DNA of 20,000 nucleotides from an uncultured virus (IMG/VR IMGVR_UViG_3300037466_001022) (lineage: Duplodnaviria > Heunggongvirae > Uroviricota > Caudoviricetes), in IMG/VR virus record IMGVR_UViG_3300037466_001022, one strand, 5' to 3'. Shown in pieces: positions 230-19,515 of the stretch. The position numbers and the translations under genes are program-made. The notes beneath the pieces are model-generated. The model ran no database searches. It was not told the origin of the DNA and was given only the letters and a program-made list of their open reading frames with translations. Numbering within the stretch: the first letter of the stretch is position 1; each line of letters begins with the position of its first letter.

Positions 230-477
230 GCATTGTAGTATCAAACACAAATATCACATTCCCTGATGCAAATACACAAAATACTGCTGGAATAACTTCT
301 GCAACAGATTTGGCTAACACTGGTCAATCAATTGTTGTTGATCGTTCTGGTGACACACTACGGTTCAAGCGTATTGCTCATGGTACATTCCTTACCGATT
401 TTGCCAATTCTAATGTTGTCATCTTACAAGGCCATAATCTTTTTAGTCCTCCGGGTCCACCAGGACCTCCGGGTCCA
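194..477 (+). repeat. Two collagen-like Gly-Pro-Pro coding tracts (194-226 and 448-477)
   Basis: CCTCCAGGA/CCACCAGGA/CCTCCGGGT 9-nt units at the 3' ends of both small ORFs. Confidence 0.85.
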
Positions 478-513
478 ATTATTGCTCCACCACCTGTTAA
501 TCCAACAAAATAA
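226..513 (+). CDS. Small putative virion/fibre-associated protein with C-terminal PPGPPGPPGP collagen-like tract
   Basis: 95 aa, N-terminal ITFPDANTQNTA motif of the type seen in phage fibre proteins; translationally coupled to its upstream paralog. Confidence 0.75.
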   Translation: MSIVVSNTNITFPDANTQNTAGITSATDLANTGQSIVVDRSGDTLRFKRIAHGTFLTDFANSNVVILQGHNLFSPPGPPGPPGPIIAPPPVNPTK

Positions 514-523
514 AAAGGTAGTT

Positions 524-1210
524 ATGATACAGTATAAACGACGTGAAGGTGTAAATTATTTTACCGATTTCATGATGAACAACAAGCCAGGGGCTATTCG
601 TGAAAGATTATGGTATTATGATGAACATTTTATTTCTCCAGAATTGTGTGACAAATTTGTTGATCGTGTCCAACAATTAAATAAGAAAGAAATAAAAGGT
701 GGTGGAATTCATGTCGAGGAGGGGGACACGACATATCGTAATTCTGACGTATTCTTTCTGAGTAATGAGGATGTTTCATTGCCAGATGTAAAAGAATTTC
801 ATGATACCATGATTTCCAAAACATTAGAAATAAATAACCGAATATTCAATTTTGATATCTCCCATTTGATGCATTCCCAATTCACTCAATACAAGGGTGA
901 AGACAAACAGCATTTCAATTGGCATCCTGATGGTGGGTTAGGGTTTGAAACAGATTTGGAATTAATGGATGATTTGATCTTCCGAAAGTTGACAACTGTT
1001 GTCTGTCTTTCGGATCATACCGATTATGAACACGGCGATTTTATCCTATTTGATGGTGGTGTCTTACCAGAACAGGCTATATGTTTGTTCAAGATGACAA
1101 AGGGGGAAGCAATTATTTTCCCGGCATTCATGATGCATAAAGTAAATCCAGTAACTTCTGGAAAGAGAATTTCTTTAGTAAATTGGTTTTGTGGGCCTAG
1201 GTGGCGATAA
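524..1210 (+). CDS. 2OG-Fe(II) oxygenase, prolyl 4-hydroxylase / PKHD-type family
   Basis: HxD (WHPDG), distal His (MHKVNPV), 2OG-binding Arg (GKRISLVNW), TYRNS and RKLTTVVCLS motifs. Start re-assigned to ATG 524 (AAGGT upstream), after the stop of 226..513. Confidence 0.88.
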   Translation: MIQYKRREGVNYFTDFMMNNKPGAIRERLWYYDEHFISPELCDKFVDRVQQLNKKEIKGGGIHVEEGDTTYRNSDVFFLSNEDVSLPDVKEFHDTMISKTLEINNRIFNFDISHLMHSQFTQYKGEDKQHFNWHPDGGLGFETDLELMDDLIFRKLTTVVCLSDHTDYEHGDFILFDGGVLPEQAICLFKMTKGEAIIFPAFMMHKVNPVTSGKRISLVNWFCGPRWR

Positions 1211-1814: not shown

Positions 1815-4753
1815 TGGCTGATAATATTAAAGTTACTATAACTGGTAATCCTCCTCTTGTTGTATCTGGTGTGACACAGGGTGTTGCCGCAAATGTCTTG
1901 CCAGCATTCAATCAAGCTAATTCAGCATTTTCACAAGCCAATTCCGCTAATTCCCAGGCCTCGGCTGCTTTTAATCAGGCTAATGGAGCTTGGTCGGCCG
2001 CCAACACTGGTATCGCAATTGCCACTCAGTCTGGAAATCAAGCTAATTCAGCATTTGTAGAAGCTAATGTTGCAAACACAATCTCTGTTCAATCAGGTAA
2101 TATTGCGAATGTAGCGTTTTCTACAGCCAATGCCGCATATTCTTCATCTAATACATCTAATACTATAGCAATACAATCTGGGAACCAGGCTAATTCCGCA
2201 TTTGTTGGTGCAAATATTGCCAATTTAATTGCCATACAGTCTGGTACTGTGGCAAATTCAGCATTTGCAGCCGCTAATACAGCAAATATTATTGCCATCC
2301 AATCTGGTAATCAGGCCAATTCCGCCTATATACAAGCTAATACATCAAACAGCACTAATGGTTTTGGTTATATTGCTGCCAATGCCGCTTTTGCTCAAGC
2401 CAATAGTTCATGGACGACGGCAAATACTTCCAATATTATTGCCATTCAATCTGGTAATCAGGTTAATTCTTCCTTTTCTGCCGCCAATACAGCAAATGCA
2501 AGAGCAATTGGAGCATTCGCTCAAGCTAATGGTGCTTGGAATAGTGCCAATACAGCGAACAACATTGCCTTGCAATCTGGTAATCAATCCAATTCTGCAT
2601 TCTCTGCAGCCAATACCGCAAACTCTATTGCCATTCAATCTGGTAATCAGGCTAACTCCGCCTTCGTGGCAGCCAATACAGCCAATACCATTGCAATTCA
2701 ATCTGGATCACAAGCTAATTCTGCCTTCACTGGTGCCAATACAGCAAATAGTATTGCTATGGGAGCATTTTCTCAAGCCAATAGTGCATGGACAACAGCT
2801 AATACCGCTAATACCATTGGAATACAATCTGGTAATCAGGCAAATTCGGCATTCAGCCAAGCTAATACTGCGAATGCAACGACCGGTTTGGGTTATATTT
2901 GGGCAAATTCTGCATTCAATCAAGCCAACGGTGCATTCGCTAGAGCCAATGCTGCTTATGCACAAGCTAATACTTCTCCTGGATCCAATACTAATATTAT
3001 ATTTAATGATAGCGGTGTATATGCAGGATCCAATAATACATCATGGAATAAAGCAAACAGTTCGCTTCTAATTTCTGGTAACACATACACTACAGAAATT
3101 GTAGTCGGGGATAATGTTGCATGGTCAAAAATCCCTTCATGGAAGTATGATTTCCGTTCTGAAGTTCTTCCTTTTGGATCAACTTTTACAAGAAATTCAA
3201 TAGCCACATATTATGCTGCAAATGGTCAGATGATGACTGTTAGTGCAAATGTAGCGCGGTTTGATCATAATCCAATTGATGGTTTACCATTTGGTTATCT
3301 AGCCGAAGTGCAGAGTACGAATGCTGTAACATATTCTGCCGACCGCACCCATTGGACAGTGAGTATTACAACCCTTTCAACTGATGGGACGCTTGCTCCA
3401 GATGGTTCATTAGCCACACTTGTTACTGCCAATTCTGGTGCCGGAAAACACTATGTTGCCAGCGGTCAGGCATCTGGTGCTGGTTCTACACTTCTTGGAT
3501 TAAGTATTTTCGTCAAGCAAGGAAGCACTCGCTATGTCTGTCTTGCTGAAACACAGGATAGTATCAATCACGCTGGCACCTTCGATTTTCAAACTGGTGT
3601 ATTTGTCAATGCTGGTCAGGGGATATCAAATCCCACTGCCAGACAACTTGCTAATGGATGGTGGCGCTTATCGTTTCAGATGACGGCTACCAGCACAAGT
3701 ACAACAACTCAGCTTTCAGTTTCACCTACAACCAGTAGCACAGGTACAGCGGCAGATAATACTTACACTGCAATTGGTAATGAAACTGTTTATGTCTTTG
3801 GTTTCCAGAATGAAGCAAATGGTGTAGGAACTACAACCTATATACCAACTGCTGGTAGTGCCGTCACACGCTTGTCAGATGTACTCACATTACCTCTAAC
3901 ATCTCTACCTGGATGGAGTTCTTCTATTGGTGGTATGTTAGTTTGTACTTATCGTTTACATTCCCGCGCAAGAACTGGTGTTGTTTCTTCGATTGTGGAT
4001 AGCGGTGCTGGCGCTAATGCCGTTTTGTTATATGAATACTTTGGTGGAGCGGCATTCTCAAGATTTAATACATTTGCCTCAGGAAACATTGCCCAATTGG
4101 GTGGTCCTGCCTCTCCTGCACAATTCGTGCGTAGAAAGATATCAGTAGCATGGATGGTTGGGCGCCAACAGATTGCTCATGATGGTATACTCGATGCCAC
4201 AAATGGCGGTCAATCTACTGCATTACCGTCCTCTCTTGTCAACCTTAGAATCGGAACAGATGATGGAACTAATAGTCTCTGTGGTACCATCGAAAGTATT
4301 GCTTATTATATGGGCAATAAGACAGACAACGAAGTACAATTCACAAGTGCCAATGGCACTGTCTTAGGATCAACTGTTACCTACCTCCATGATCAACTAG
4401 AAATTATTGGTTCAACTGCTCAATCAGCATTCTCTCTTGCCAATTCTATGTCAGTTGCTGCCAATACAGCCAGAATCAACATTCAAACTGCAAATTATAC
4501 GGTTTCGAATACAGATTCGGGCTCTATCATTGTCATGAATAGCTCCAGCAATCTAAATGTTACTGTACCATTTCTTTCTACTGGTATGTTTGTTCGCATC
4601 ATCCGTGGTGGGTCCGGTACTGTCAATATCCAAAATACAAATATTGTGATGAATTCAACTAATACCGGAAATACCTTGATTACCAAGCAATATGCGAGTG
4701 TTACCTTACTTGTTTGGAATGCAAATACGGTTATTTTGGATGGTAGTGTATAA
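1814..4753 (+). CDS. Fibre/whisker-like virion protein: Ala/Asn heptad shaft plus putative carbohydrate-binding head
   Basis: Long A-N-x-A-F heptad region, then FTRNSIATY...ARFDHNP...GYLAE..STN fibre motif and beta-rich lectin-like region, C-terminal QTANYTVSNTDSG domain; sits directly upstream of gp13 where T4 has wac. Confidence 0.8.
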   Translation: MADNIKVTITGNPPLVVSGVTQGVAANVLPAFNQANSAFSQANSANSQASAAFNQANGAWSAANTGIAIATQSGNQANSAFVEANVANTISVQSGNIANVAFSTANAAYSSSNTSNTIAIQSGNQANSAFVGANIANLIAIQSGTVANSAFAAANTANIIAIQSGNQANSAYIQANTSNSTNGFGYIAANAAFAQANSSWTTANTSNIIAIQSGNQVNSSFSAANTANARAIGAFAQANGAWNSANTANNIALQSGNQSNSAFSAANTANSIAIQSGNQANSAFVAANTANTIAIQSGSQANSAFTGANTANSIAMGAFSQANSAWTTANTANTIGIQSGNQANSAFSQANTANATTGLGYIWANSAFNQANGAFARANAAYAQANTSPGSNTNIIFNDSGVYAGSNNTSWNKANSSLLISGNTYTTEIVVGDNVAWSKIPSWKYDFRSEVLPFGSTFTRNSIATYYAANGQMMTVSANVARFDHNPIDGLPFGYLAEVQSTNAVTYSADRTHWTVSITTLSTDGTLAPDGSLATLVTANSGAGKHYVASGQASGAGSTLLGLSIFVKQGSTRYVCLAETQDSINHAGTFDFQTGVFVNAGQGISNPTARQLANGWWRLSFQMTATSTSTTTQLSVSPTTSSTGTAADNTYTAIGNETVYVFGFQNEANGVGTTTYIPTAGSAVTRLSDVLTLPLTSLPGWSSSIGGMLVCTYRLHSRARTGVVSSIVDSGAGANAVLLYEYFGGAAFSRFNTFASGNIAQLGGPASPAQFVRRKISVAWMVGRQQIAHDGILDATNGGQSTALPSSLVNLRIGTDDGTNSLCGTIESIAYYMGNKTDNEVQFTSANGTVLGSTVTYLHDQLEIIGSTAQSAFSLANSMSVAANTARINIQTANYTVSNTDSGSIIVMNSSSNLNVTVPFLSTGMFVRIIRGGSGTVNIQNTNIVMNSTNTGNTLITKQYASVTLLVWNANTVILDGSV
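1900..2975 (+). repeat. Degenerate 21/63-nt coding tandem repeat (IAIQSGNQANSAFxAANTAN)
   Basis: QSG codons at 2027, 2090, 2174, 2237, 2300, 2447, 2573, 2636, 2699, 2825; every spacing is a multiple of 21 nt. Confidence 0.9.
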
Positions 4754-9824: not shown

Positions 9825-10439
9825 ATGTTACAGCGTTCAGATATATTTATTGAGTCTAAATATGTTAAATGGTATTTTGAGTTAATGGAAAAAGCAAGAT
9901 ACCAACCACCTATAAAAGGTCAGACAGAAAAACATCATATTATTCCAGAAGGATGTGGTGGTGAAGATAAAATGGAAAATAGGGTAAATTTGACATATCG
10001 ACAACATTACATTTCTCATATGCTTTTGGCAAAAGCCGATTATGTCGAATCATCTTCTAAGAGAAAAATGGTTCAAGGATTTCTTGCATTGGGCCGATTT
10101 CGTAAGTTAGATTGGTGGATTAATAGAGATAGGAATGGGTGTAAGACAAATTTACATGCTCAATTGAAAAAAAATCTCAGTTGCCACATTCGAGGTGAAA
10201 AAAGTGTGGTTTTTGGTCAAAAATTCTCTGAAGAGAGAAAACGACTCCAAAAAAATGGATTAATTGGGAAATCATCGTCTGGTGAGAACCATTATCTTTA
10301 TAAAAAGAAAATGTCCGAAGAACAAAAGAGGAAGATAAGCCAGACACTCAAAAAGTATAGTTTCACAGAAGAACATAAAAGGAATATCAGTCTATCAAAA
10401 ATTGGTCGTCCTCGAAAAGTGAAACTCTTAAAGTCCTAA
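9825..10439 (+). CDS. Free-standing HNH homing endonuclease (Mob-like) with NUMOD3-type DNA-binding repeats
   Basis: EKHHIIP..CGG.D...N.V.LT.RQHY..H.LL nuclease motif; C-terminal MSEEQKRKIS and FTEEHKRNIS repeats; AT-rich relative to flanks. Confidence 0.9.
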   Translation: MLQRSDIFIESKYVKWYFELMEKARYQPPIKGQTEKHHIIPEGCGGEDKMENRVNLTYRQHYISHMLLAKADYVESSSKRKMVQGFLALGRFRKLDWWINRDRNGCKTNLHAQLKKNLSCHIRGEKSVVFGQKFSEERKRLQKNGLIGKSSSGENHYLYKKKMSEEQKRKISQTLKKYSFTEEHKRNISLSKIGRPRKVKLLKS

Positions 10440-12385: not shown

Positions 12386-12970
12386 ATGATTATTTCAGAG
12401 AAGGTGGAAGTAACAATATCAAACCAAGGGAAGTATTATTCTTCCCTTGGTTACAAAGATACTAAACAAGGCACTAAAATAATAGTACCAATTGAACATT
12501 TATTAAAAAATTCTAATATTAAAGTTGAATGTCAATGTGATCAATGTGATTCAATATTCTGGAGACAATATCAATTAGTAAGAAAAGAAGGTAAACTCAA
12601 TTTAGGACTATTATGTTTTGATTGTGCCAGAAAAGAAATAGGCGTTCAATCGGATAAGACTAATGCAAAAATTGCAAATAGTAAAAGAACTGGTGTTAAA
12701 CATCCACGTTGGAATCCTAATAAAAGTGAATTTGTTAAATTTGCCAATCAAGTAAGATGGTTAAGTGAAAAGAAATATATTGAATATAAAGATATTATCA
12801 ATCCACACGACTACCCAAGAACATTATGTGGTGTTGAAGGTGGTTATCAGTTAGACCATATTATTTCCATCAAAAGAGGTTTTTTGACAGGTCTTAATCC
12901 AGAATTTTTAGCAGAAGTAAATAATCTGCGAATGGTTCCATGGAAAGTAAATCGTGATAAGTGGTACTAA
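12386..12970 (+). CDS. Free-standing HNH endonuclease with N-terminal Zn-finger
   Basis: CDQC...CFDC, HPRWNP, C-terminal YQLDHIIS....GF.......NL.MVPW..N..K HNH motif; AT-rich. Confidence 0.82.
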   Translation: MIISEKVEVTISNQGKYYSSLGYKDTKQGTKIIVPIEHLLKNSNIKVECQCDQCDSIFWRQYQLVRKEGKLNLGLLCFDCARKEIGVQSDKTNAKIANSKRTGVKHPRWNPNKSEFVKFANQVRWLSEKKYIEYKDIINPHDYPRTLCGVEGGYQLDHIISIKRGFLTGLNPEFLAEVNNLRMVPWKVNRDKWY

Positions 12971-13008: not shown

Positions 13009-13590
13009 ATGCCTTTTAATATTTCAAACTTCAGATCAGAACTACAATATGACGGCGCAAGAGCGAACCTCTTCGAAGTCACAATGCAGTTCCCTATTCT
13101 CCTTGGTAATTCCGATGCTGCAAGAAAGCTGACTTTCATGTGTAAGTCAGCCTCTCTGCCTGGTGTGTCCGTTGGAACTGTTCCAATGTACTACTTTGGT
13201 CGTGAGCTAAAGTTTGCTGGCAACAAGAATTTCCAGGATTGGTCAATCACAATCATCAATGACGAAGACTTTCTGGTCCGTAACGCATTCGAAGAATGGT
13301 CAGACGGCATCAATCGTCACGTCGAAAACCTAAGAACACTTGGCAATAATCCAAATTCTTATCAGGTTGATATGCAAGTTGTCCAGTACGGTAAGTCTGG
13401 TAACGGCATCAAGGGTTACAACCTAGTTGGTTGCTGGCCTACTGACATTTCAACTATCGATTTGGATTGGGGTACAAACGACACAATCGAAGATTTCACT
13501 GTTACTCTAGCATACCAGTGGTGGGAAGCGTATGGTCCGTCTGGGGTGCAAATCACAGATGGTGAATCCTCACCTGTCGTGTTGCCTTAA
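13009..13590 (+). CDS. gp19: Tail tube protein gp19
   Basis: GARANLFEV, FMCKSASLPG, YFGRELKFAG...F.DW.ITIINDEDF, WPT..S.IDLDW, IEDFTVT..YQWW. Start at ATG 13009. Confidence 0.96.
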   Translation: MPFNISNFRSELQYDGARANLFEVTMQFPILLGNSDAARKLTFMCKSASLPGVSVGTVPMYYFGRELKFAGNKNFQDWSITIINDEDFLVRNAFEEWSDGINRHVENLRTLGNNPNSYQVDMQVVQYGKSGNGIKGYNLVGCWPTDISTIDLDWGTNDTIEDFTVTLAYQWWEAYGPSGVQITDGESSPVVLP

Positions 13591-13606
13591 TCTTTTATTT
13601 TTTATC

Positions 13607-14269
13607 ATGTTGTGTACAATCTACAAAGCAACTAACAAAATTAATGGCAAATCATACATTGGTTTTGATAGTAATTGGCCAAGGCGGCAAATAGAACACA
13701 AGTCTAATGCCGCCTTGGCTCGCGATGCTACACACTTTCATAAAGCCATCCGTAAACATGGTTGGGATAATTTTGTTTGGGAAATTGTCTGTCAATTTCC
13801 AGACAAAAATTATACATTAAAGGTATTGGAACCATATTTCATCAAGTATTATGATACATACGAAAATGGATATAATCTAACACATGGTGGTGATGGTAAT
13901 CCTGGTTATAAATGGTCAACTGAAATGACCGAGTATATGAGAAAAATTATGACAGGTAAGAAACAATCAAAAGAAACACTGAAAAAGAAAAGCCTGGCTG
14001 CCAAAGGAAGAAAATTGTCTCAAGATCACATTTTAAATACTTCTATTGGTCTCATAAAGAGATATGAAACTGAAAACCAAGAAAAAATTTTGGTAAATAC
14101 AAAATATGGGTCAGTTATGTTTGGCTCATTTAGGTCTGCCGAAAGATCATTAAAAAATGGTTCAAAATGTGACCTTCATTGGTGCTTCCGTTTCTATAGA
14201 AAAAATGATCGTCTTCCACCAAAATTATTAAATGAAGGTTTCATCATTAGCGTAGAAAGAGTTGCCTAA
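13607..14269 (+). CDS. Free-standing GIY-YIG (Seg-like) homing endonuclease with NUMOD3-type repeats
   Basis: TIYKATNKINGKSYIG, R...H, AIRKHG..NF, E..FI, NGYNLT.GGDG, KKQSKETLKKKS. Start taken at ATG 13607. Confidence 0.9.
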   Translation: MLCTIYKATNKINGKSYIGFDSNWPRRQIEHKSNAALARDATHFHKAIRKHGWDNFVWEIVCQFPDKNYTLKVLEPYFIKYYDTYENGYNLTHGGDGNPGYKWSTEMTEYMRKIMTGKKQSKETLKKKSLAAKGRKLSQDHILNTSIGLIKRYETENQEKILVNTKYGSVMFGSFRSAERSLKNGSKCDLHWCFRFYRKNDRLPPKLLNEGFIISVERVA

Positions 14270-15978
14270 TGGCTGGCATAAAGTTATTTGGTTACGAGCT
14301 AATAAAGACTAAGCAGGAAGAGGCTAACTCCTCTCCTTCCCTTAAGTCTTTTGTTGGTCCGGAAAACGATGATGGTGCTATTACAATCCAATCGGGTGCC
14401 GGGGGATTCTCCGGCACCTTTCTTGACTTGGATGGTGTCATCAAGAATGAGCAAGAGCTTATTGTACGTTATCGTGAAATGGCTCAACAGCCCGAAGTTG
14501 AGTCGGCAATTGACGATATCTGCAATGAAGCCATTGTCCATGACGACGAAGGTAAGACCGTTTCGTTGGTCATGGATCAATTGGATGACTATGATGAAAC
14601 AGTAAAGAAGGCCATTCGCGACGAGTTTGACAATGTTCTGAGATTGTTGGATTTCTCCAACCAAGGTTATGATATCTTTCGCCAATGGTATGTAGATGGT
14701 CGTATCTTCTACCATGTCATCGTGGATGAAGCCAATCGGGATGAAGGTATCAAAGAAGTAAGATTTATTGATCCTCGCAGGATCAAAAAGATTCGTGAAA
14801 TCCAGAAGGTGAAAGACCCACGTACTGGAATGGACATGGTTGGTAAAGTCCAGGAATACTATCTGTTCAATGAGTATGGAACTCCTGGTAAGAACAATTC
14901 TGGGGCTAATGGCACTGTAGGCAAGATTGCCAAAGACTCTGTGGTCTCTATCACTTCTGGTCTTGTTGACCCGAAACGTGGACTCGTTATTGGTTTCTTG
15001 AACAAGGCTATCAAGCCTGCCAACAACCTTAGAATGATTGAAGATGCTTCTGTCATTTATCGTTTGGCAAGAGCACCTGGTCGTCGTGCGTGGTATTTCG
15101 ACGTAGGTGGCATGAGTTCCAAGAAAGCTGAAGAATATGTAAATTCGATGATGGTGAAATATCGTAATCGTCTTCAATATGATTCGTCTACAGGTGAAAT
15201 CAAAGACGATAGACGCCATATTTCAATGCTTGAAGACTTCTGGTTGGCACGTAAGGATGGTAAACAAACCACCGAGATCGTTACACTTCCAGAAGGTGCT
15301 AATCTTGGTAACATGGAAGACGTGGAATATTTCCTCCGTAAGCTATATTCTGCATTGGGTGTTCCACTTTCTCGTTTGCAGCCAGGTCAGCCCTTCTCTA
15401 TGGGCTACAACAATGAAATCTCTCGCGATGAATTGAAGTTCTCGAAATTCATTGATCGTCTTAGAAATCGTTTCTCTCACCTATTCGATGAACTACTTCG
15501 CCAGCAATTGATCTTGAAAAAGGTCTGTAATGCCGAAGAATGGGAAGATATCCGCGAACGTCTGCATTATGACTTTTTGCGTGACAATAACTTTACCGAG
15601 TTGAAAGAAAGCCAATTGTTGCAGAATCGTCTCCAGATTCTAACTTCAATCTCTCCTTATGTTGGTGTGTATTTCTCTCAGAAATGGATCAAGACGAACG
15701 TTCTTCGCTTCGATGACGAGGACATTGAACAAATGGATGAAGAAATCGAGGAAGAGGGTTCACAACCACCACCACCAGGAGCAGAGGGACAAATTGATCC
15801 TCAGACTGGAATGCCATTTGAAATGGGTTCAGACGGTACTCCAACACAAAGCGGTGCAATGCCTAGTGAACCAGGTGAACCAGCTTTTGGACAGAACAAT
15901 TCATCAAATGACTACAAGCCAAAGCTTCGTAGGAATAAGAAATATGGCGAAGAACCAAAAAGTCCGTTTGACAAGTAA
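14269..15978 (+). CDS. gp20: Portal vertex protein gp20
   Basis: YREMA..PEV.SAIDDI.NEAI, FRQWYVDGR, IDPRRI, KAIKPAN.LRMIEDA.VIYR..RAP, MLEDFWL.R, ISRDELKF.KFI.RLR. Confidence 0.97.
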   Translation: MAGIKLFGYELIKTKQEEANSSPSLKSFVGPENDDGAITIQSGAGGFSGTFLDLDGVIKNEQELIVRYREMAQQPEVESAIDDICNEAIVHDDEGKTVSLVMDQLDDYDETVKKAIRDEFDNVLRLLDFSNQGYDIFRQWYVDGRIFYHVIVDEANRDEGIKEVRFIDPRRIKKIREIQKVKDPRTGMDMVGKVQEYYLFNEYGTPGKNNSGANGTVGKIAKDSVVSITSGLVDPKRGLVIGFLNKAIKPANNLRMIEDASVIYRLARAPGRRAWYFDVGGMSSKKAEEYVNSMMVKYRNRLQYDSSTGEIKDDRRHISMLEDFWLARKDGKQTTEIVTLPEGANLGNMEDVEYFLRKLYSALGVPLSRLQPGQPFSMGYNNEISRDELKFSKFIDRLRNRFSHLFDELLRQQLILKKVCNAEEWEDIRERLHYDFLRDNNFTELKESQLLQNRLQILTSISPYVGVYFSQKWIKTNVLRFDDEDIEQMDEEIEEEGSQPPPPGAEGQIDPQTGMPFEMGSDGTPTQSGAMPSEPGEPAFGQNNSSNDYKPKLRRNKKYGEEPKSPFDK

Positions 15979-16220: not shown

Positions 16221-16967
16221 ATGAGCAGTAAAGATATCATCGACCATCTATACAATGGTGATTTGGATCAGATGCGTGAAGCATTCCATCAAACAATGCT
16301 TCCTCATGTCGCCAACATGCTTGAAACAAAGAAGCTTGAAGTAGCTTCAAAGATGATTGGAGATGGGGAACCTGTCAGTGAAGAGGTTCTAGCAGAAATT
16401 TCAAAGAAGACACTTGGCTCATATGTAAAGAAATCTGCCGAAAATATGGCTGCTGGTGAAAGTGACAAAGAAACATATCGCAAGTATCCGGTTGCCAGAA
16501 AAGAAGCTGAAAAACAGGTTGAAAAGCGCCGCACTGGAATTGAACGCGCCGTTAAAAAACTAACCAAAGAAGAAATGGAAACAATCATTGATGCTTTGGA
16601 TGAAGAAACATTGACAGAACTATCAAAAGGTACACTTAAGTCATATGTTCATAAAGCTTCAATGGATATGGTTAAAAATAATCATCTAGCAACATCACCT
16701 TTTAAAGGTAAAGGGTACGCAAAAAATAAGGTTGCAGAAAGAAAGTTTGGTAATAGAGTCGATGGTGTCAAAAAAGCCTTTAATAAAGTTACCAAAGAAG
16801 AAGTAGAAGAATTCCTAGGTACTTTAACTCAGGAAGAAATTGAAAATCTTCAGGAACTATCTTCCAAGAAACTTCTTCAGTACACAGCCAAGGCTGGTTA
16901 CGATACCAAGAAAGATCGTGAAAAGGGTATTGACAAGGCTACAAAGAAGCTATCAAAAGACGAATAA
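16221..16967 (+). CDS. gp67: gp67-like prohead core protein fused to three basic helical repeat modules
   Basis: First ~50 aa (IID.L..GDL...REAF...M......LE.KK.EVASKM) resemble T4 gp67 and lie just after gp20; followed by three LxE(I/L)S...L..Y..K modules. Confidence 0.7.
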   Translation: MSSKDIIDHLYNGDLDQMREAFHQTMLPHVANMLETKKLEVASKMIGDGEPVSEEVLAEISKKTLGSYVKKSAENMAAGESDKETYRKYPVARKEAEKQVEKRRTGIERAVKKLTKEEMETIIDALDEETLTELSKGTLKSYVHKASMDMVKNNHLATSPFKGKGYAKNKVAERKFGNRVDGVKKAFNKVTKEEVEEFLGTLTQEEIENLQELSSKKLLQYTAKAGYDTKKDREKGIDKATKKLSKDE

Positions 16968-16997: not shown

Positions 16998-17285
16998 ATG
17001 AAAACATTCGAACAAATTCAAGAAGAAATTTTATCCGAATTGTCTGGCAAAACTCTTGTTGGTTATATCCAGAAAGCTACCGCGGAAGGTGACAAACAAA
17101 ATAAGATCGCTCAAGGGCATATGAAAACCTTACATAAGCTTCGCATGATTGACAACAAACTGGAAGACCCCAAGAACAAAGAATACTATACACAAACCCA
17201 TGCTCATGCTCGTAAAGCCGTGAGCAAGCATTTTAGAAGAACTGCTGGCTTGAAGCGAGCATATAGAAGTTTGGAGAAGAAATGA
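16998..17285 (+). CDS. Putative internal head protein: capsid-targeting-like leader plus one basic module
   Basis: MKTFEQIQEEILSE leader (cf. T4 CTS MKTYQEFIAE); ELSGKTLVGYIQKA...R..GL..A; SD AAGGAG. Confidence 0.75.
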   Translation: MKTFEQIQEEILSELSGKTLVGYIQKATAEGDKQNKIAQGHMKTLHKLRMIDNKLEDPKNKEYYTQTHAHARKAVSKHFRRTAGLKRAYRSLEKK

Positions 17286-17506
17286 AAATGTTAAATCAAA
17301 TCCAGGAAGAAATCTTGAATGAGATTAGCTTCGACAAAATGACCGAATATACGAAAAAAGCCTATGCAAGTCGTGAAAAGGCCGGACAGAGAGCCCGCGC
17401 ATTCGACAATGCAACAGCGAAAGAGGGTACCAAAACTTATAATAAAAGAGAAAAAGGTTTGAAACTTCTTCATAAGAGATCAAAGGGCTTTTACGGCGAA
17501 AAATAA
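17282..17506 (+). CDS. Putative internal head protein, paralog of 16998..17285
   Basis: MKMLNQIQEEILNE leader; EISFDKMTEYTKKA...REKGL; GGAG SD and ATGA coupling. Confidence 0.75.
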   Translation: MKMLNQIQEEILNEISFDKMTEYTKKAYASREKAGQRARAFDNATAKEGTKTYNKREKGLKLLHKRSKGFYGEK

Positions 17507-17511
17507 TCATC

Positions 17512-17697
17512 ATGAAGACATTCTGGCAACTTCTGGAAGAAATGAAGGTAACTAAAGAATCTGTAGACTACTCCAAGGGTATGCCAGAAAGTCATTGTGG
17601 TATCTGCGATCATTATAAATCACCAAATGCCTGCGAAAGAGTAAAAGGTAAAATCAACACAAATATGTGGTGCAAACTGTTCAAGAAAGAAGATTAG
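17512..17697 (+). CDS. HiPIP-like [4Fe-4S] protein with capsid-targeting-like leader
   Basis: MKTFWQLLEE leader then K..K..V.Y.......CxxC..Y..P..C..V.G.I....WC..F, the four-Cys pattern of short HiPIPs. Confidence 0.75.
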   Translation: MKTFWQLLEEMKVTKESVDYSKGMPESHCGICDHYKSPNACERVKGKINTNMWCKLFKKED

Positions 17698-17700
17698 ATC

Positions 17701-18195
17701 GTGAAAACCTTAAGCCAACTACTGTCAGAAACGAGACATGAAAAGGTGCAAGAACAGACACCACCTGTTTCTATGGTAGAGGCAACAGACGTAATTACAC
17801 CAGATCAACTATACCACGATTTCGATGTTGATGGAGATGGTGTTGTATCTGTAGACGACTATGCATCAAAGATTCTTTGGCATGAGACTCATCCCGGAAA
17901 GTTGGAATGGATTATGGGTAATATGGACGGTGTCCATTTGGAACATGCTGCAAGCGAAGATTCATCATGTGCCGTTTCTCTTCATGAAGACTATGATAGA
18001 AGGGTCGAAACAGAGAATTTGGATGAAAATACCAAAGGTTCTTTGATGCCACCGTCAATGATCGTAATGAAACGTGTTGCTATCCGACAATATCCCAATG
18101 GTCAGAAGGTGGCTCTTTACTACGCCAAGACAATTAATAAATATTTGACAGTTCCCTACAACGACATTGGTATCGCAGACTTAACGAAGGAATGA
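17701..18195 (+). CDS. Putative internal head protein with single EF-hand loop and conserved C-terminal domain
   Basis: GTG start, MKTLSQLLSE leader; DVDGDGVVSVDD loop; C-terminal PP...VMKR.AIR.YPNGQKVALYY......Y.TVPY. Confidence 0.72.
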   Translation: MKTLSQLLSETRHEKVQEQTPPVSMVEATDVITPDQLYHDFDVDGDGVVSVDDYASKILWHETHPGKLEWIMGNMDGVHLEHAASEDSSCAVSLHEDYDRRVETENLDENTKGSLMPPSMIVMKRVAIRQYPNGQKVALYYAKTINKYLTVPYNDIGIADLTKE

Positions 18196-18200
18196 TCTAA

Positions 18201-18794
18201 ATGACTCTACAAATTGGTAGCCTAGTACGCCCAACGGCAGGGCCACACAAAAACCAGGTCCATGAAGTTGTCCATATTTTCGAAGATGGACATGCAAACA
18301 TTCGCCCTGTAGAAGGCGAATGCTTGTATGAAGATGGATTGGTTACATGTGATCCAAAACTCCTTCAAGAAGAATTCATTGTTGAAGAATACCAGGAGCC
18401 CTATGGACACTGGTTTACGTCCATGTCTGAAAAGCAAAAGACGGCCTATCGCAAGAATCATCCAGATGCCCAAGGCACTTATGGTCATGCTCCTGGATCA
18501 GTCAAGCATTATAGGGCACTGTCACAGGCACATGAGAAATATGCCGACTTTCATAAAGATCGTTTGGAACATCATGAAGACAAGCGCCATGCAGAATCAC
18601 AGAAAACCAAACCAGACTATGAAGCAATGGATCATCATTCTAGTGCAAGACATGGACATGCTACAGAATTCCATAATCATACGATGGCAGCAGCACATTA
18701 TGGCTCTCTAGCTCGCGGCGGGTCTCCAAGTTATGACAAATGGATTCCAAAGCGTCATAATGAAGTCTCACCCGCAGAACCAGCAAGGTATTAA
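18201..18794 (+). CDS. Hypothetical protein: SH3/KOW-like N-terminus, acidic linker, His-rich C-terminus
   Basis: IGSLVRPTAGPHKNQVHEVV N-terminus; LQEEFIVEE linker; 13 His within ~67 aa. Confidence 0.7.
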   Translation: MTLQIGSLVRPTAGPHKNQVHEVVHIFEDGHANIRPVEGECLYEDGLVTCDPKLLQEEFIVEEYQEPYGHWFTSMSEKQKTAYRKNHPDAQGTYGHAPGSVKHYRALSQAHEKYADFHKDRLEHHEDKRHAESQKTKPDYEAMDHHSSARHGHATEFHNHTMAAAHYGSLARGGSPSYDKWIPKRHNEVSPAEPARY

Positions 18795-18797
18795 TAA

Positions 18798-19241
18798 ATG
18801 CCAATTTCCAATACACAAATCCTTCTAGATACCCAGAAACGCACCGTTGTTAAGGTAACGGGTTCTGGAACTGATGTTGCAAACACGACAATCATTAATG
18901 CCAATACATTGAATGGGGCCATTTCTGGTCTTGGATATCACGAGGTTGATGTTCGCAAGATCATCTATTCAATCACAGATGGTGGTGGTTATGTCAAACT
19001 TTATTGGCAGGGTGCGTCCGCCAACGTCGATATGGTAAACATCACAGGTCAAGGTGTTCTAGAATTCCAGCCAGAAGCAATGGTATTGAATAACAATGCT
19101 ACCAATCCATCTGGAAATATTGGATTTTCAACAACTGGTATGTCTGCAAACTCCGCATATACTGTAATCCTTGATTTGAGAAAGAATACCGCACACTTCG
19201 ATCCAGGTTCAGCACTTGACCCAGCCGCTTTCAACAGATGA
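18798..19241 (+). CDS. Conserved hypothetical beta-sandwich virion protein preceding gp68/gp21
   Basis: QIL.DT....V.K.TG, V.L.W, I/L.NNA..P.GNI, YTVILDLRK, DPAAFN; recalled as recurrent at this locus in large T4-like phages. Confidence 0.7.
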   Translation: MPISNTQILLDTQKRTVVKVTGSGTDVANTTIINANTLNGAISGLGYHEVDVRKIIYSITDGGGYVKLYWQGASANVDMVNITGQGVLEFQPEAMVLNNNATNPSGNIGFSTTGMSANSAYTVILDLRKNTAHFDPGSALDPAAFNR

Positions 19242-19515
19242 TTTTGAATTTCTAGACGAGGCGGCATTTAGATATGTCACACGAGTCAGAAATGGAAAAG
19301 TCATTCGACGCGCCAAAGTCAAAACTGTTAAGAGAAAAGGATATAAACTCCGTGGTAACAGATTGGTGCGAGAAAGTGCGGCTGAAATTCGAAACAGACG
19401 TCGTGCGGCGATTAAAGCTACAAGGAAGCGTAGGTCTAAACGCTCCCAATCAAACAGAAAGCGTGCAAGATCACTCCTAAAGAGACAAAGATTGCATCTA
19501 AAGAGGAAAAGATAA
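19216..19515 (+). CDS. gp68: gp68-like highly basic prohead core protein
   Basis: RVRNGKV.RR...GYKLRG..LVR.S..E.RNRR...KR..SL.KR; directly upstream of gp21; TTG start with CAGGT SD-like element; FLDE/A motif. Confidence 0.78.
   Translation: MTQPLSTDDFEFLDEAAFRYVTRVRNGKVIRRAKVKTVKRKGYKLRGNRLVRESAAEIRNRRRAAIKATRKRRSKRSQSNRKRARSLLKRQRLHLKRKR

Follow-up and report, generated by a model that had tools for sequence, protein, structure and literature searches.

A predicted HiPIP-fold iron-sulfur protein with a capsid-targeting-type leader in the head gene cluster of an uncultured T4-type phage

The stretch of DNA considered here (the window) is 20,000 nt of the IMG/VR record IMGVR_UViG_3300037466_001022, from an uncultured virus of the Caudoviricetes. 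At positions 17512–17697 on the + strand it carries a small gene whose product, P0001, is on balance probably an iron-sulfur (Fe-S) protein with the fold of the high-potential iron-sulfur proteins (HiPIPs), carried as cargo in the phage head. The program-made translation of this open reading frame (ORF) is MKTFWQLLEEMKVTKESVDYSKGMPESHCGICDHYKSPNACERVKGKINTNMWCKLFKKED (61 aa); it runs from ATG to TAG and is an exact match to the protein string quoted in a preliminary description of the window, in which a HiPIP-like protein with a capsid-targeting leader in place of an export signal had been proposed. [quoted passage not shown] A HiPIP as head cargo would join these two well-studied systems, a combination not found in print, and if true would place an Fe-S cofactor among the material injected by a virus.

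The sequence evidence for a HiPIP relationship centers on PioC, a 54-residue HiPIP of Rhodopseudomonas palustris TIE-1 (PDB 6xyv). It was the sole PDB sequence, among 177,635, to match P0001 at E ≤ 10 (E 4.8e-5), with residues 26–58 of P0001 aligned to 19–51 of PioC; this 33-residue alignment is gap-free and includes the four cluster ligands, all of which coincide, as well as the W-C, G and V positions. A profile of three sequences (A1; the window domain and two relatives) found PioC at E 9.1e-9, followed by a second HiPIP, 3h31, at E 1.2. The NCBIfam model for the Iro “iron oxidase” HiPIP (NF041615) matches residues 12–58 of P0001 at 2.2e-7, over profile positions 39–86 of 90; the likeness spans the whole mature domain, and the first 38 positions of Iro have no counterpart in P0001. 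The same model was matched by nine of nine family members tested, all with scores far under its equivalog cut-off. P0001 itself falls short of the membership threshold of Pfam HIPIP (PF01355). When 118 short relatives were scanned singly, 27 matched this family at E ≤ 1 (best 2.2e-5), compared with eight for HPIP_like and at most six for every other Pfam family, and a fused relative, P0139, exceeds the Pfam HIPIP gathering score (31 vs 22 bits). At the level of sequence, the link of P0001 to Pfam HIPIP is transitive, via these relatives, and is complemented by the direct matches to PioC and Iro. The family-model search suggested in the preliminary description gave nothing from Pfam HIPIP for P0001 itself and a match from NCBIfam Iro.

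The cysteines of P0001 (Cys29/32/41/54) are spaced C-x2-C-x8-C-x12-C, identically to those of PioC, and their order and spacing fall within the HiPIP pattern C-x2-C-x(8-16)-C-x(12-13)-C. All four are invariant in the 118 aligned short members, where K12, K15, Y20, G23, V44, G46, I48 and W53 are also conserved at 90% or more. In HiPIPs, aromatic side chains shield the cluster. The corresponding positions (Tyr before Cys1, an aromatic after Cys2, Trp before Cys4) are present in the family, position 35 is F/Y and position 57 is F in the consensus of the 118 sequences, and in the alignment with PioC the aromatics line up with its F, W and Y.

The predicted fold points the same way. An AlphaFold2 model of P0001, built with the 118-member alignment, has a pLDDT (predicted local distance difference test score) of 88.4, and all 18 of its Foldseek matches at E ≤ 10 are HiPIP entries. 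In a comparison independent of Foldseek, against 48,161 chains, 11 chains reached Z ≥ 2 and the top seven are HiPIPs (Z 7.0–4.8). The best structural match is again PioC, at Z 7.0 with a root-mean-square deviation of 1.9 Å over 53 of 54 residues; identity between the two is ~24–25% in structural alignments, and both are comparably minimal in size. The remaining four chains belong to glycyl-radical enzyme complexes, where they are presumably HiPIP-like small subunits. The structural scores alone are modest, and taken together with the sequence matches they support assignment of the domain to the HiPIP superfamily, nearest to the short PioC/Iro type. That P0001 has the HiPIP fold is very probable, and the identity first suggested for it holds up on the PioC and Iro matches, the invariant cysteines and conserved aromatics of 118 relatives, and the predicted structure.

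It is likely, judging from the sequence and the model, that P0001 also binds a [4Fe-4S] cluster. The alternative is a HiPIP-derived fold without a cubane, with cysteines that bind zinc or form disulfides, serving as a small rigid knob or adaptor in phage heads. Weak and scattered zinc-finger matches among the short relatives (Znf_XAF1_N in 2/118, zf-C17orf113 in 3/118) would fit this, as would the position of the domain at the ends of large head-associated proteins, where adaptors are often found. It is considered unlikely, with both the cysteine spacing and the cluster-shielding aromatics conserved over 118 sequences, the model superposing closely on PioC, and HIPIP by far the commonest Pfam match of the relatives. 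In P0001, moreover, the domain is better seen as payload than as an anchoring adaptor, because targeting would be supplied by the leader.

This leader, MKTFWQLLEE, is the second part of the case. In the T4 record (NC_000866), ipII and ipIII open with MKTYQEFIAE and ipI with MKTFKEF...; compared with MKTYQEFIAE, the leader of P0001 is identical at four of ten positions and conservatively substituted at another four. As with T4 IPI, IPII and IPIII, a ten-residue, Glu-ended leader of the MKT(Y/F)..-type is found on otherwise unrelated small proteins. A search of all six frames of the window with the leader pattern gave four matches, at the starts of the ORFs at 16998, 17282, 17512 and 17701, and none elsewhere. 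The P0001 gene is the third of these four closely packed + strand ORFs: 16998–17285 and 17282–17506 overlap by 4 bases, the stop of the latter ends 5 bases upstream of 17512, and the P0001 stop sits 3 bases ahead of the GTG at 17701. All four lie between the genes for the portal (gp20) and the prohead protease (gp21). The three neighbors show no HiPIP domain beyond the leader; an EF-hand-like loop is present in one of them, and the other two have a different repeated motif in common. The prohead protease gp21 cleaves after Glu in L/I-x-E, and the leader of P0001 ends in a candidate site of this kind. It seems rather probable that P0001 is packaged and processed.

Bacterial HiPIPs typically carry a twin-arginine translocation (Tat) signal peptide and are located in the periplasm; PioC, for one, is encoded in a photoferrotrophy operon and exported to the periplasm, where it carries electrons. 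P0001, unlike PioC, has no export signal, a head-targeting-type leader, and a position in a head gene cluster. Its sole Arg is at position 43 and it has no hydrophobic run of six or more residues, so that both a Tat and a Sec signal are absent. The suggestion that a leader of T4 type has taken the place of the Tat signal is supported by the absence of Tat features, the likeness to the ten residues of ipII and ipIII, and the sharing of the leader by three neighbors.

With the leader removed, the domain opens MKVTKESVDY and has nine residues ahead of the conserved Tyr. Among 117 other short relatives, 56 have just 8–11 residues ahead of this Tyr (exactly nine in 14 cases) and so start within two residues of the same point. 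Because leader-free P0001 begins where many free-standing relatives begin, its gene looks like that of a complete free-standing domain, own Met included, with a tag placed in front; the window presents this arrangement cleanly. The idea that the leader is a mere N-terminal helix of the HiPIP fold was rejected, since the same 56 relatives do without it and the three non-HiPIP neighbors have it.

A tagged homologue is also found in the cultured freshwater cyanophage S-SRM01. The protein, QPX48026 (67 aa, annotated as hypothetical; tblastn E 1e-4), starts with MKSFQEFLFE. When P0001 and the S-SRM01 protein were compared by tblastn with 50,697 phage records, only S-SRM01 was found (two records of one phage), apart from one further weak match per query (E 8 and E 0.05). 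Scanned with a degenerate DNA pattern for this leader, the S-SRM01 genome gave eight forward-strand sites and no reverse-strand ones, against zero for a control pattern, and the eight tagged ORFs are otherwise dissimilar to each other. By sequence, S-SRM01 is thus an independent second case of a tagged HiPIP homologue, and as a cultured phage it makes the claim directly testable. The other seven tagged ORFs of S-SRM01 (MW015081.1; at 81722, 82315, 83142, 126582, 138614, 157606 and 176324) begin with MK(S/T)F..F.E or MEK-type sequences; three of them cluster at 81.7–84.2 kb, and those in the region examined are annotated as hypothetical. The eight may be regarded as a candidate internal-protein set for this phage. 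As far as a term search of the S-SRM01 paper goes (PMC8557907), it has no mention of the gene and no virion mass spectrometry.

Several observations weigh against reading P0001 as HiPIP-type head cargo. As to its identity, the best Foldseek match has an E of 0.022 and none reaches E ≤ 0.001, and a Z of 7.0 is within the range that the comparison tool reports as common for the best matches of unmatched models. P0001 has no Pfam match, even at E ≤ 1, and no PHROG match; against the Iro model it scores 31 bits, far from the equivalog cut-off (100), and is therefore no orthologue of Iro. As to packaging, P0001 shares only four of ten leader positions with T4, and that leaders of T4 type function in the same way outside T4 is assumed. 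The S-SRM01 homologue is located outside the head gene cluster, among hypothetical genes, and the HiPIP cysteine motif occurs in none of 17 viral contigs gathered via gp21, on which grounds the HiPIP is not a core head component. Finally, no Shine-Dalgarno-like sequence precedes the ATG at 17512. A GGAAGAA (within 17533–17544) is instead found immediately 5′ of another in-frame ATG, the one at 17542 with which the free-standing-type domain opens, and a leaderless cytoplasmic product of 51 aa may be made from there.

These start-site observations and the position of the S-SRM01 gene would fit an unpackaged, cytoplasmic phage HiPIP, a soluble electron carrier or Fe-S accessory comparable to the auxiliary redox proteins of phages. 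The first ten residues would then be a mere helix, as modelled by AlphaFold for residues 4–11, or would go untranslated if 17542 is the start; many relatives are indeed free-standing proteins of 50–60 aa with no leader. This, too, is an improbable account of P0001. The GGAAGAA consists of the Glu-Glu codons of the leader and recurs in two of the three neighboring leaders, those at 16998 and 17282. The leader is found on three unrelated neighbors and nowhere else in the window, is kept in the orthologue of one of them in a related contig (L016, below), resembles that of T4, and is encoded between portal and prohead protease genes; in S-SRM01 it is borne by eight unrelated ORFs. As a separate observation, the GGAAGAA before 17542 could permit a leaderless isoform, giving packaged and cytoplasmic forms from one gene.

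The phage itself is distant from all deposited phages. Its portal protein gave matches in 2590 phage records, all at <60% identity, and the best relatives among the matches listed are Methylophilales phages (50.5%) and Synechococcus phages (~45%). With a portal at most ~50% identical to that of any deposited phage, the window is a case outside the cyanophage isolates. The closest relative among the 17 contigs gathered via gp21 is L016 (gp21 80% identical), in which the genes from portal to capsid come in the order seen here. At the locus of the four tagged genes it has two leader genes, with MKTYKQILTE and an ATG-started MKTVKQLLAE, the latter orthologous to 17701, and no HiPIP gene. Leader genes are thus kept there without a HiPIP, which is an addition specific to its lineage in a cluster of tagged genes that varies. 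Internal proteins of T4 type have been described in a review as diverse defence-countering cargo with only the capsid targeting sequence in common (PMC3012670). The window and T4 are alike in having a T4-type prohead protease nearby and in a locus whose gene content varies among relatives; they differ in that the tagged genes are clustered between g20 and g21 in the window and scattered in T4.

If P0001 is carried inside the head like the internal proteins of T4 and its payload is a minimal HiPIP-fold [4Fe-4S] domain, the following course of events may be proposed. The 61-residue precursor would be made late, probably by translational coupling to the preceding gene, and steered by its ten-residue leader into the prohead scaffolding core, just as the capsid targeting sequence acts in T4. 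The leader would then be cut off by the gp21-type protease, whose gene lies 1.8 kb downstream, after Glu9 or Glu10, leaving a mildly basic domain of 51–52 residues among the packaged DNA, to exit with it through the tail at infection. In the HiPIP fold the cubane is buried beneath aromatic side chains and is oxygen-tolerant, and for this reason HiPIPs would be among the few Fe-S modules able to survive in a virion in oxic water. At ~6 kDa, a HiPIP could traverse the tail tube while folded. A buried, oxygen-tolerant cluster and very small size together make it plausible that this fold in particular was chosen.

The likely role would be that of a pre-made early effector or protectant, as with T4 internal proteins, the cluster acting as a compact structural core or as a sensor of redox state. 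A part in early infection or counter-defence can be put forward only tentatively, as a possibility rather short of even odds. It is favored all the same over a DNA-associated structural role, and iron delivery is given little weight. Bulk electron transfer is unlikely, because a capsid load of one-electron carriers would be too small to shift the redox state of a host.

Iron storage or delivery would have the virion bring Fe-S iron to an iron-poor host, or use the iron in adsorption (the “Ferrojan horse” idea). The evidence that can be cited here is circumstantial: four Fe per copy, a portal nearest to those of aquatic T4-like phages (Synechococcus and Methylophilales phages), and a homologue in a freshwater cyanophage. 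Against this, there is no sequence sign of cluster release, the many iron-loaded copies needed per burst would presumably cost an iron-limited host more than they delivered, and members of the family turn up in high-GC phage contigs too, L001 (below) among them. It is the least probable of the explanations considered, and very improbable in absolute terms.

To our knowledge, Fe-S proteins do not occur among the internal proteins of T4. Tail tip proteins of the lambda gpL type reportedly carry an iron-sulfur cluster, and lambda gpL is thus a precedent for a cluster in a virion, as proposed for P0001. It is a structural protein of the tail tip and is not of the HiPIP fold, nor is it head-internal or ejected as cargo. 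No description of a phage or virion HiPIP was found in a full-text literature search, judged by listings and abstracts, which agrees with the remark in the preliminary description that no described capsid-targeted HiPIP was known.

The family to which P0001 belongs is much larger than these examples. An exhaustive profile search of 1.84 billion representatives gave 1090 at E ≤ 1e-3 (counted at 50% identity) and 181 at E ≤ 1e-10. Of the best 150, 23 are longer than 130 residues, and the domain is mostly terminal in these. Twenty-eight longer representatives were scanned against Pfam; 16 had no match, and the 12 others matched Phage_portal_3, LPD23 (a polyvalent-protein domain), NUDIX and DUF2213 (two each), or Acb1, DUF3626 with a weak JAB, HIPIP, and a weak MgtE_N (one each). 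With 1090 representatives, and recurrence on portal and polyvalent proteins, the role of the family, whatever it may be, is widespread among uncultured phages. Portal/MuF fusions and polyvalent proteins have been interpreted as packaged and injected (Iyer et al., 2017; PMC5512222), and relatives of P0001 are fused to portals, LPD23 giants, Acb1/2H and NUDIX domains; P0001 differs from these in being a free-standing domain with a T4-type tag. The terms “HiPIP,” “Fe-S,” and “LPD23” do not occur in the main text of that article.

A word-index homologue search returned one relative from P0001 alone and 22 from the 118-sequence profile, all just “hypothetical protein.” In the ESM Atlas, the cluster nearest to P0001 (score 0.89, no more than a lead) has 84 members, all of them viral, and was automatically named as containing a HiPIP profile. 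The A1 search gave five viral loci (L004–L008), the first of which is the L001 contig; 30 of 63 ORFs, the larger ones near each match, were scanned against PHROGs. One locus (L008) was rejected as spurious: its match covers 27 residues (E 8e-4) and is not on the strand of the ORFs called there, tail genes among them, but on the other. In three of the four credible viral loci the domain copies are near terminase/portal or virion genes: that in L004 is beside virion genes, and those in L005 and L006 are within ~3 kb of terminase/portal genes. The fourth, L007, is uninformative. A metagenome scan gave seven loci, consisting of the L001 contig again, four contigs of ≤2.3 kb, and two 11-residue matches that were disregarded. 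Bacterial genome contigs yielded no relative via A1, a result that reflects two narrow peptide patterns only and does not imply absence of the family.

Two side observations concern members of this family. In L001 (a 93.6-kb high-GC viral contig, also listed as L004 and L009), the domain opens a 394-aa protein encoded at 3007–4191; residues 59–101 of this protein match phrog_2423, and its gene is just upstream of virion structural, Neck1 and tail sheath genes. Six free-standing relatives (P0054, P0060, P0073, P0097, P0099 and P0150) have another amphipathic N-terminal extension, of the type MSLR..I....K. Going by its sequence, this could be a head-targeting or protease leader of another phage group.

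A broader conjecture would be that many tailed phages carry oxygen-stable HiPIP modules in their heads as redox devices, oxidized in oxic water and reduced in the cytoplasm. In T4-like phages they would take the form of tagged free proteins, and elsewhere that of terminal domains of portals or giant injected proteins. The scheme is improbable. On the same long odds, the shift in redox state would report that the cytoplasm has been reached, activate effectors injected alongside, or disarm redox- or Fe-S-dependent defences of the host.

As a whole, the window is a structural module of T4 type whose genes follow the T4 order, running from a head-tail adaptor gene through those for head closure, sheath stabilizer, small and large terminase, sheath, tube and portal to the start of the prohead protease gene. 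Features around the P0001 gene are collected in Table 1.

Table 1. Features of the P0001 gene and of the surrounding head gene cluster (positions in the 20,000-nt window).
Feature	Position	Strand	Remarks
T4-type portal gp20	14269..15978	+	Pfam Portal_T4 1.1e-165; phrog_213 9.1e-191
Candidate prohead-core protein, 248 aa (gp67/68 position)	16221..16967	+	phrog_5709 1.3e-7; phrog_1064 “prohead” 4e-4
Leader gene MKTFEQIQEE, 95 aa	16998..17285	+	No Pfam/PHROG family at thresholds used
Leader gene MKMLNQIQEE, 74 aa	17282..17506	+	Paralogue-like to 16998; phrog_5709 weak, E 0.009
Window protein (P0001) gene	17512..17697	+	ATG to TAG, 61 codons; leader + HiPIP domain
Capsid-targeting-type leader MKTFWQLLEE	17512..17541	+	Ten codons; ends L-L-E/L-E-E, candidate prohead-protease site
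Predicted mature HiPIP domain	17542..17694	+	51 aa, 5.9 kDa, isoelectric point 8.75; Cys29/32/41/54 (precursor numbering)
Leader gene MKTLSQLLSE, 164 aa, GTG start	17701..18195	+	EF-hand-like loop; EF-hand_7 E 0.0052
T4-type prohead core protease gp21, N-terminal 161 aa	19516..19998	+	Peptidase_S77 6.6e-29; phrog_207 6.6e-62; runs off window

Some of the neighbors are of interest in their own right. The proteins encoded at 16221–16967, 16998–17285 and 17282–17506 have in common a recurring motif, (K/G)TL..Y..KA, and from their sequences they resemble a small family of paralogues that belong to the head core or interior, two of which bear the tag. The assignment of the first as a prohead-core protein is a weak one, made by its position after the portal gene. 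The 17701–18195 product has an EF-hand-like acidic loop, DFDVDGDGVVSVDDY, with a Pfam EF-hand_7 match that is under the cut-off; its orthologue in L016 (2515–3012) retains both leader and acidic loop, and the protein may be tagged, calcium-binding head cargo. Just upstream of the protease gene, 18201–18794 (+) encodes a His-rich protein of 197 aa, and 19216–19515 (+), which overlaps the end of 18798–19241, an extremely Arg/Lys-rich one of 99 aa. Neither has a Pfam or PHROG match, and L016 has a counterpart of each in the corresponding position.

Farther upstream, three homing-endonuclease-type genes, all on the + strand, are inserted in the module: 9825–10439 after the terminase gene, 12386–12970 between sheath and tube, and 13532–14269 (GIY-YIG) between tube and portal. 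For the last of these, the longest ORF shares 59 bases with the end of the tube gene and matches its family only from residue 26–29 onward; the true start probably lies farther downstream. A 292-aa protein that matches the phage 2OG-Fe(II) oxygenase family (phrog_61, 6.5e-28) is encoded at 332–1210 (+), at the edge of the structural module.

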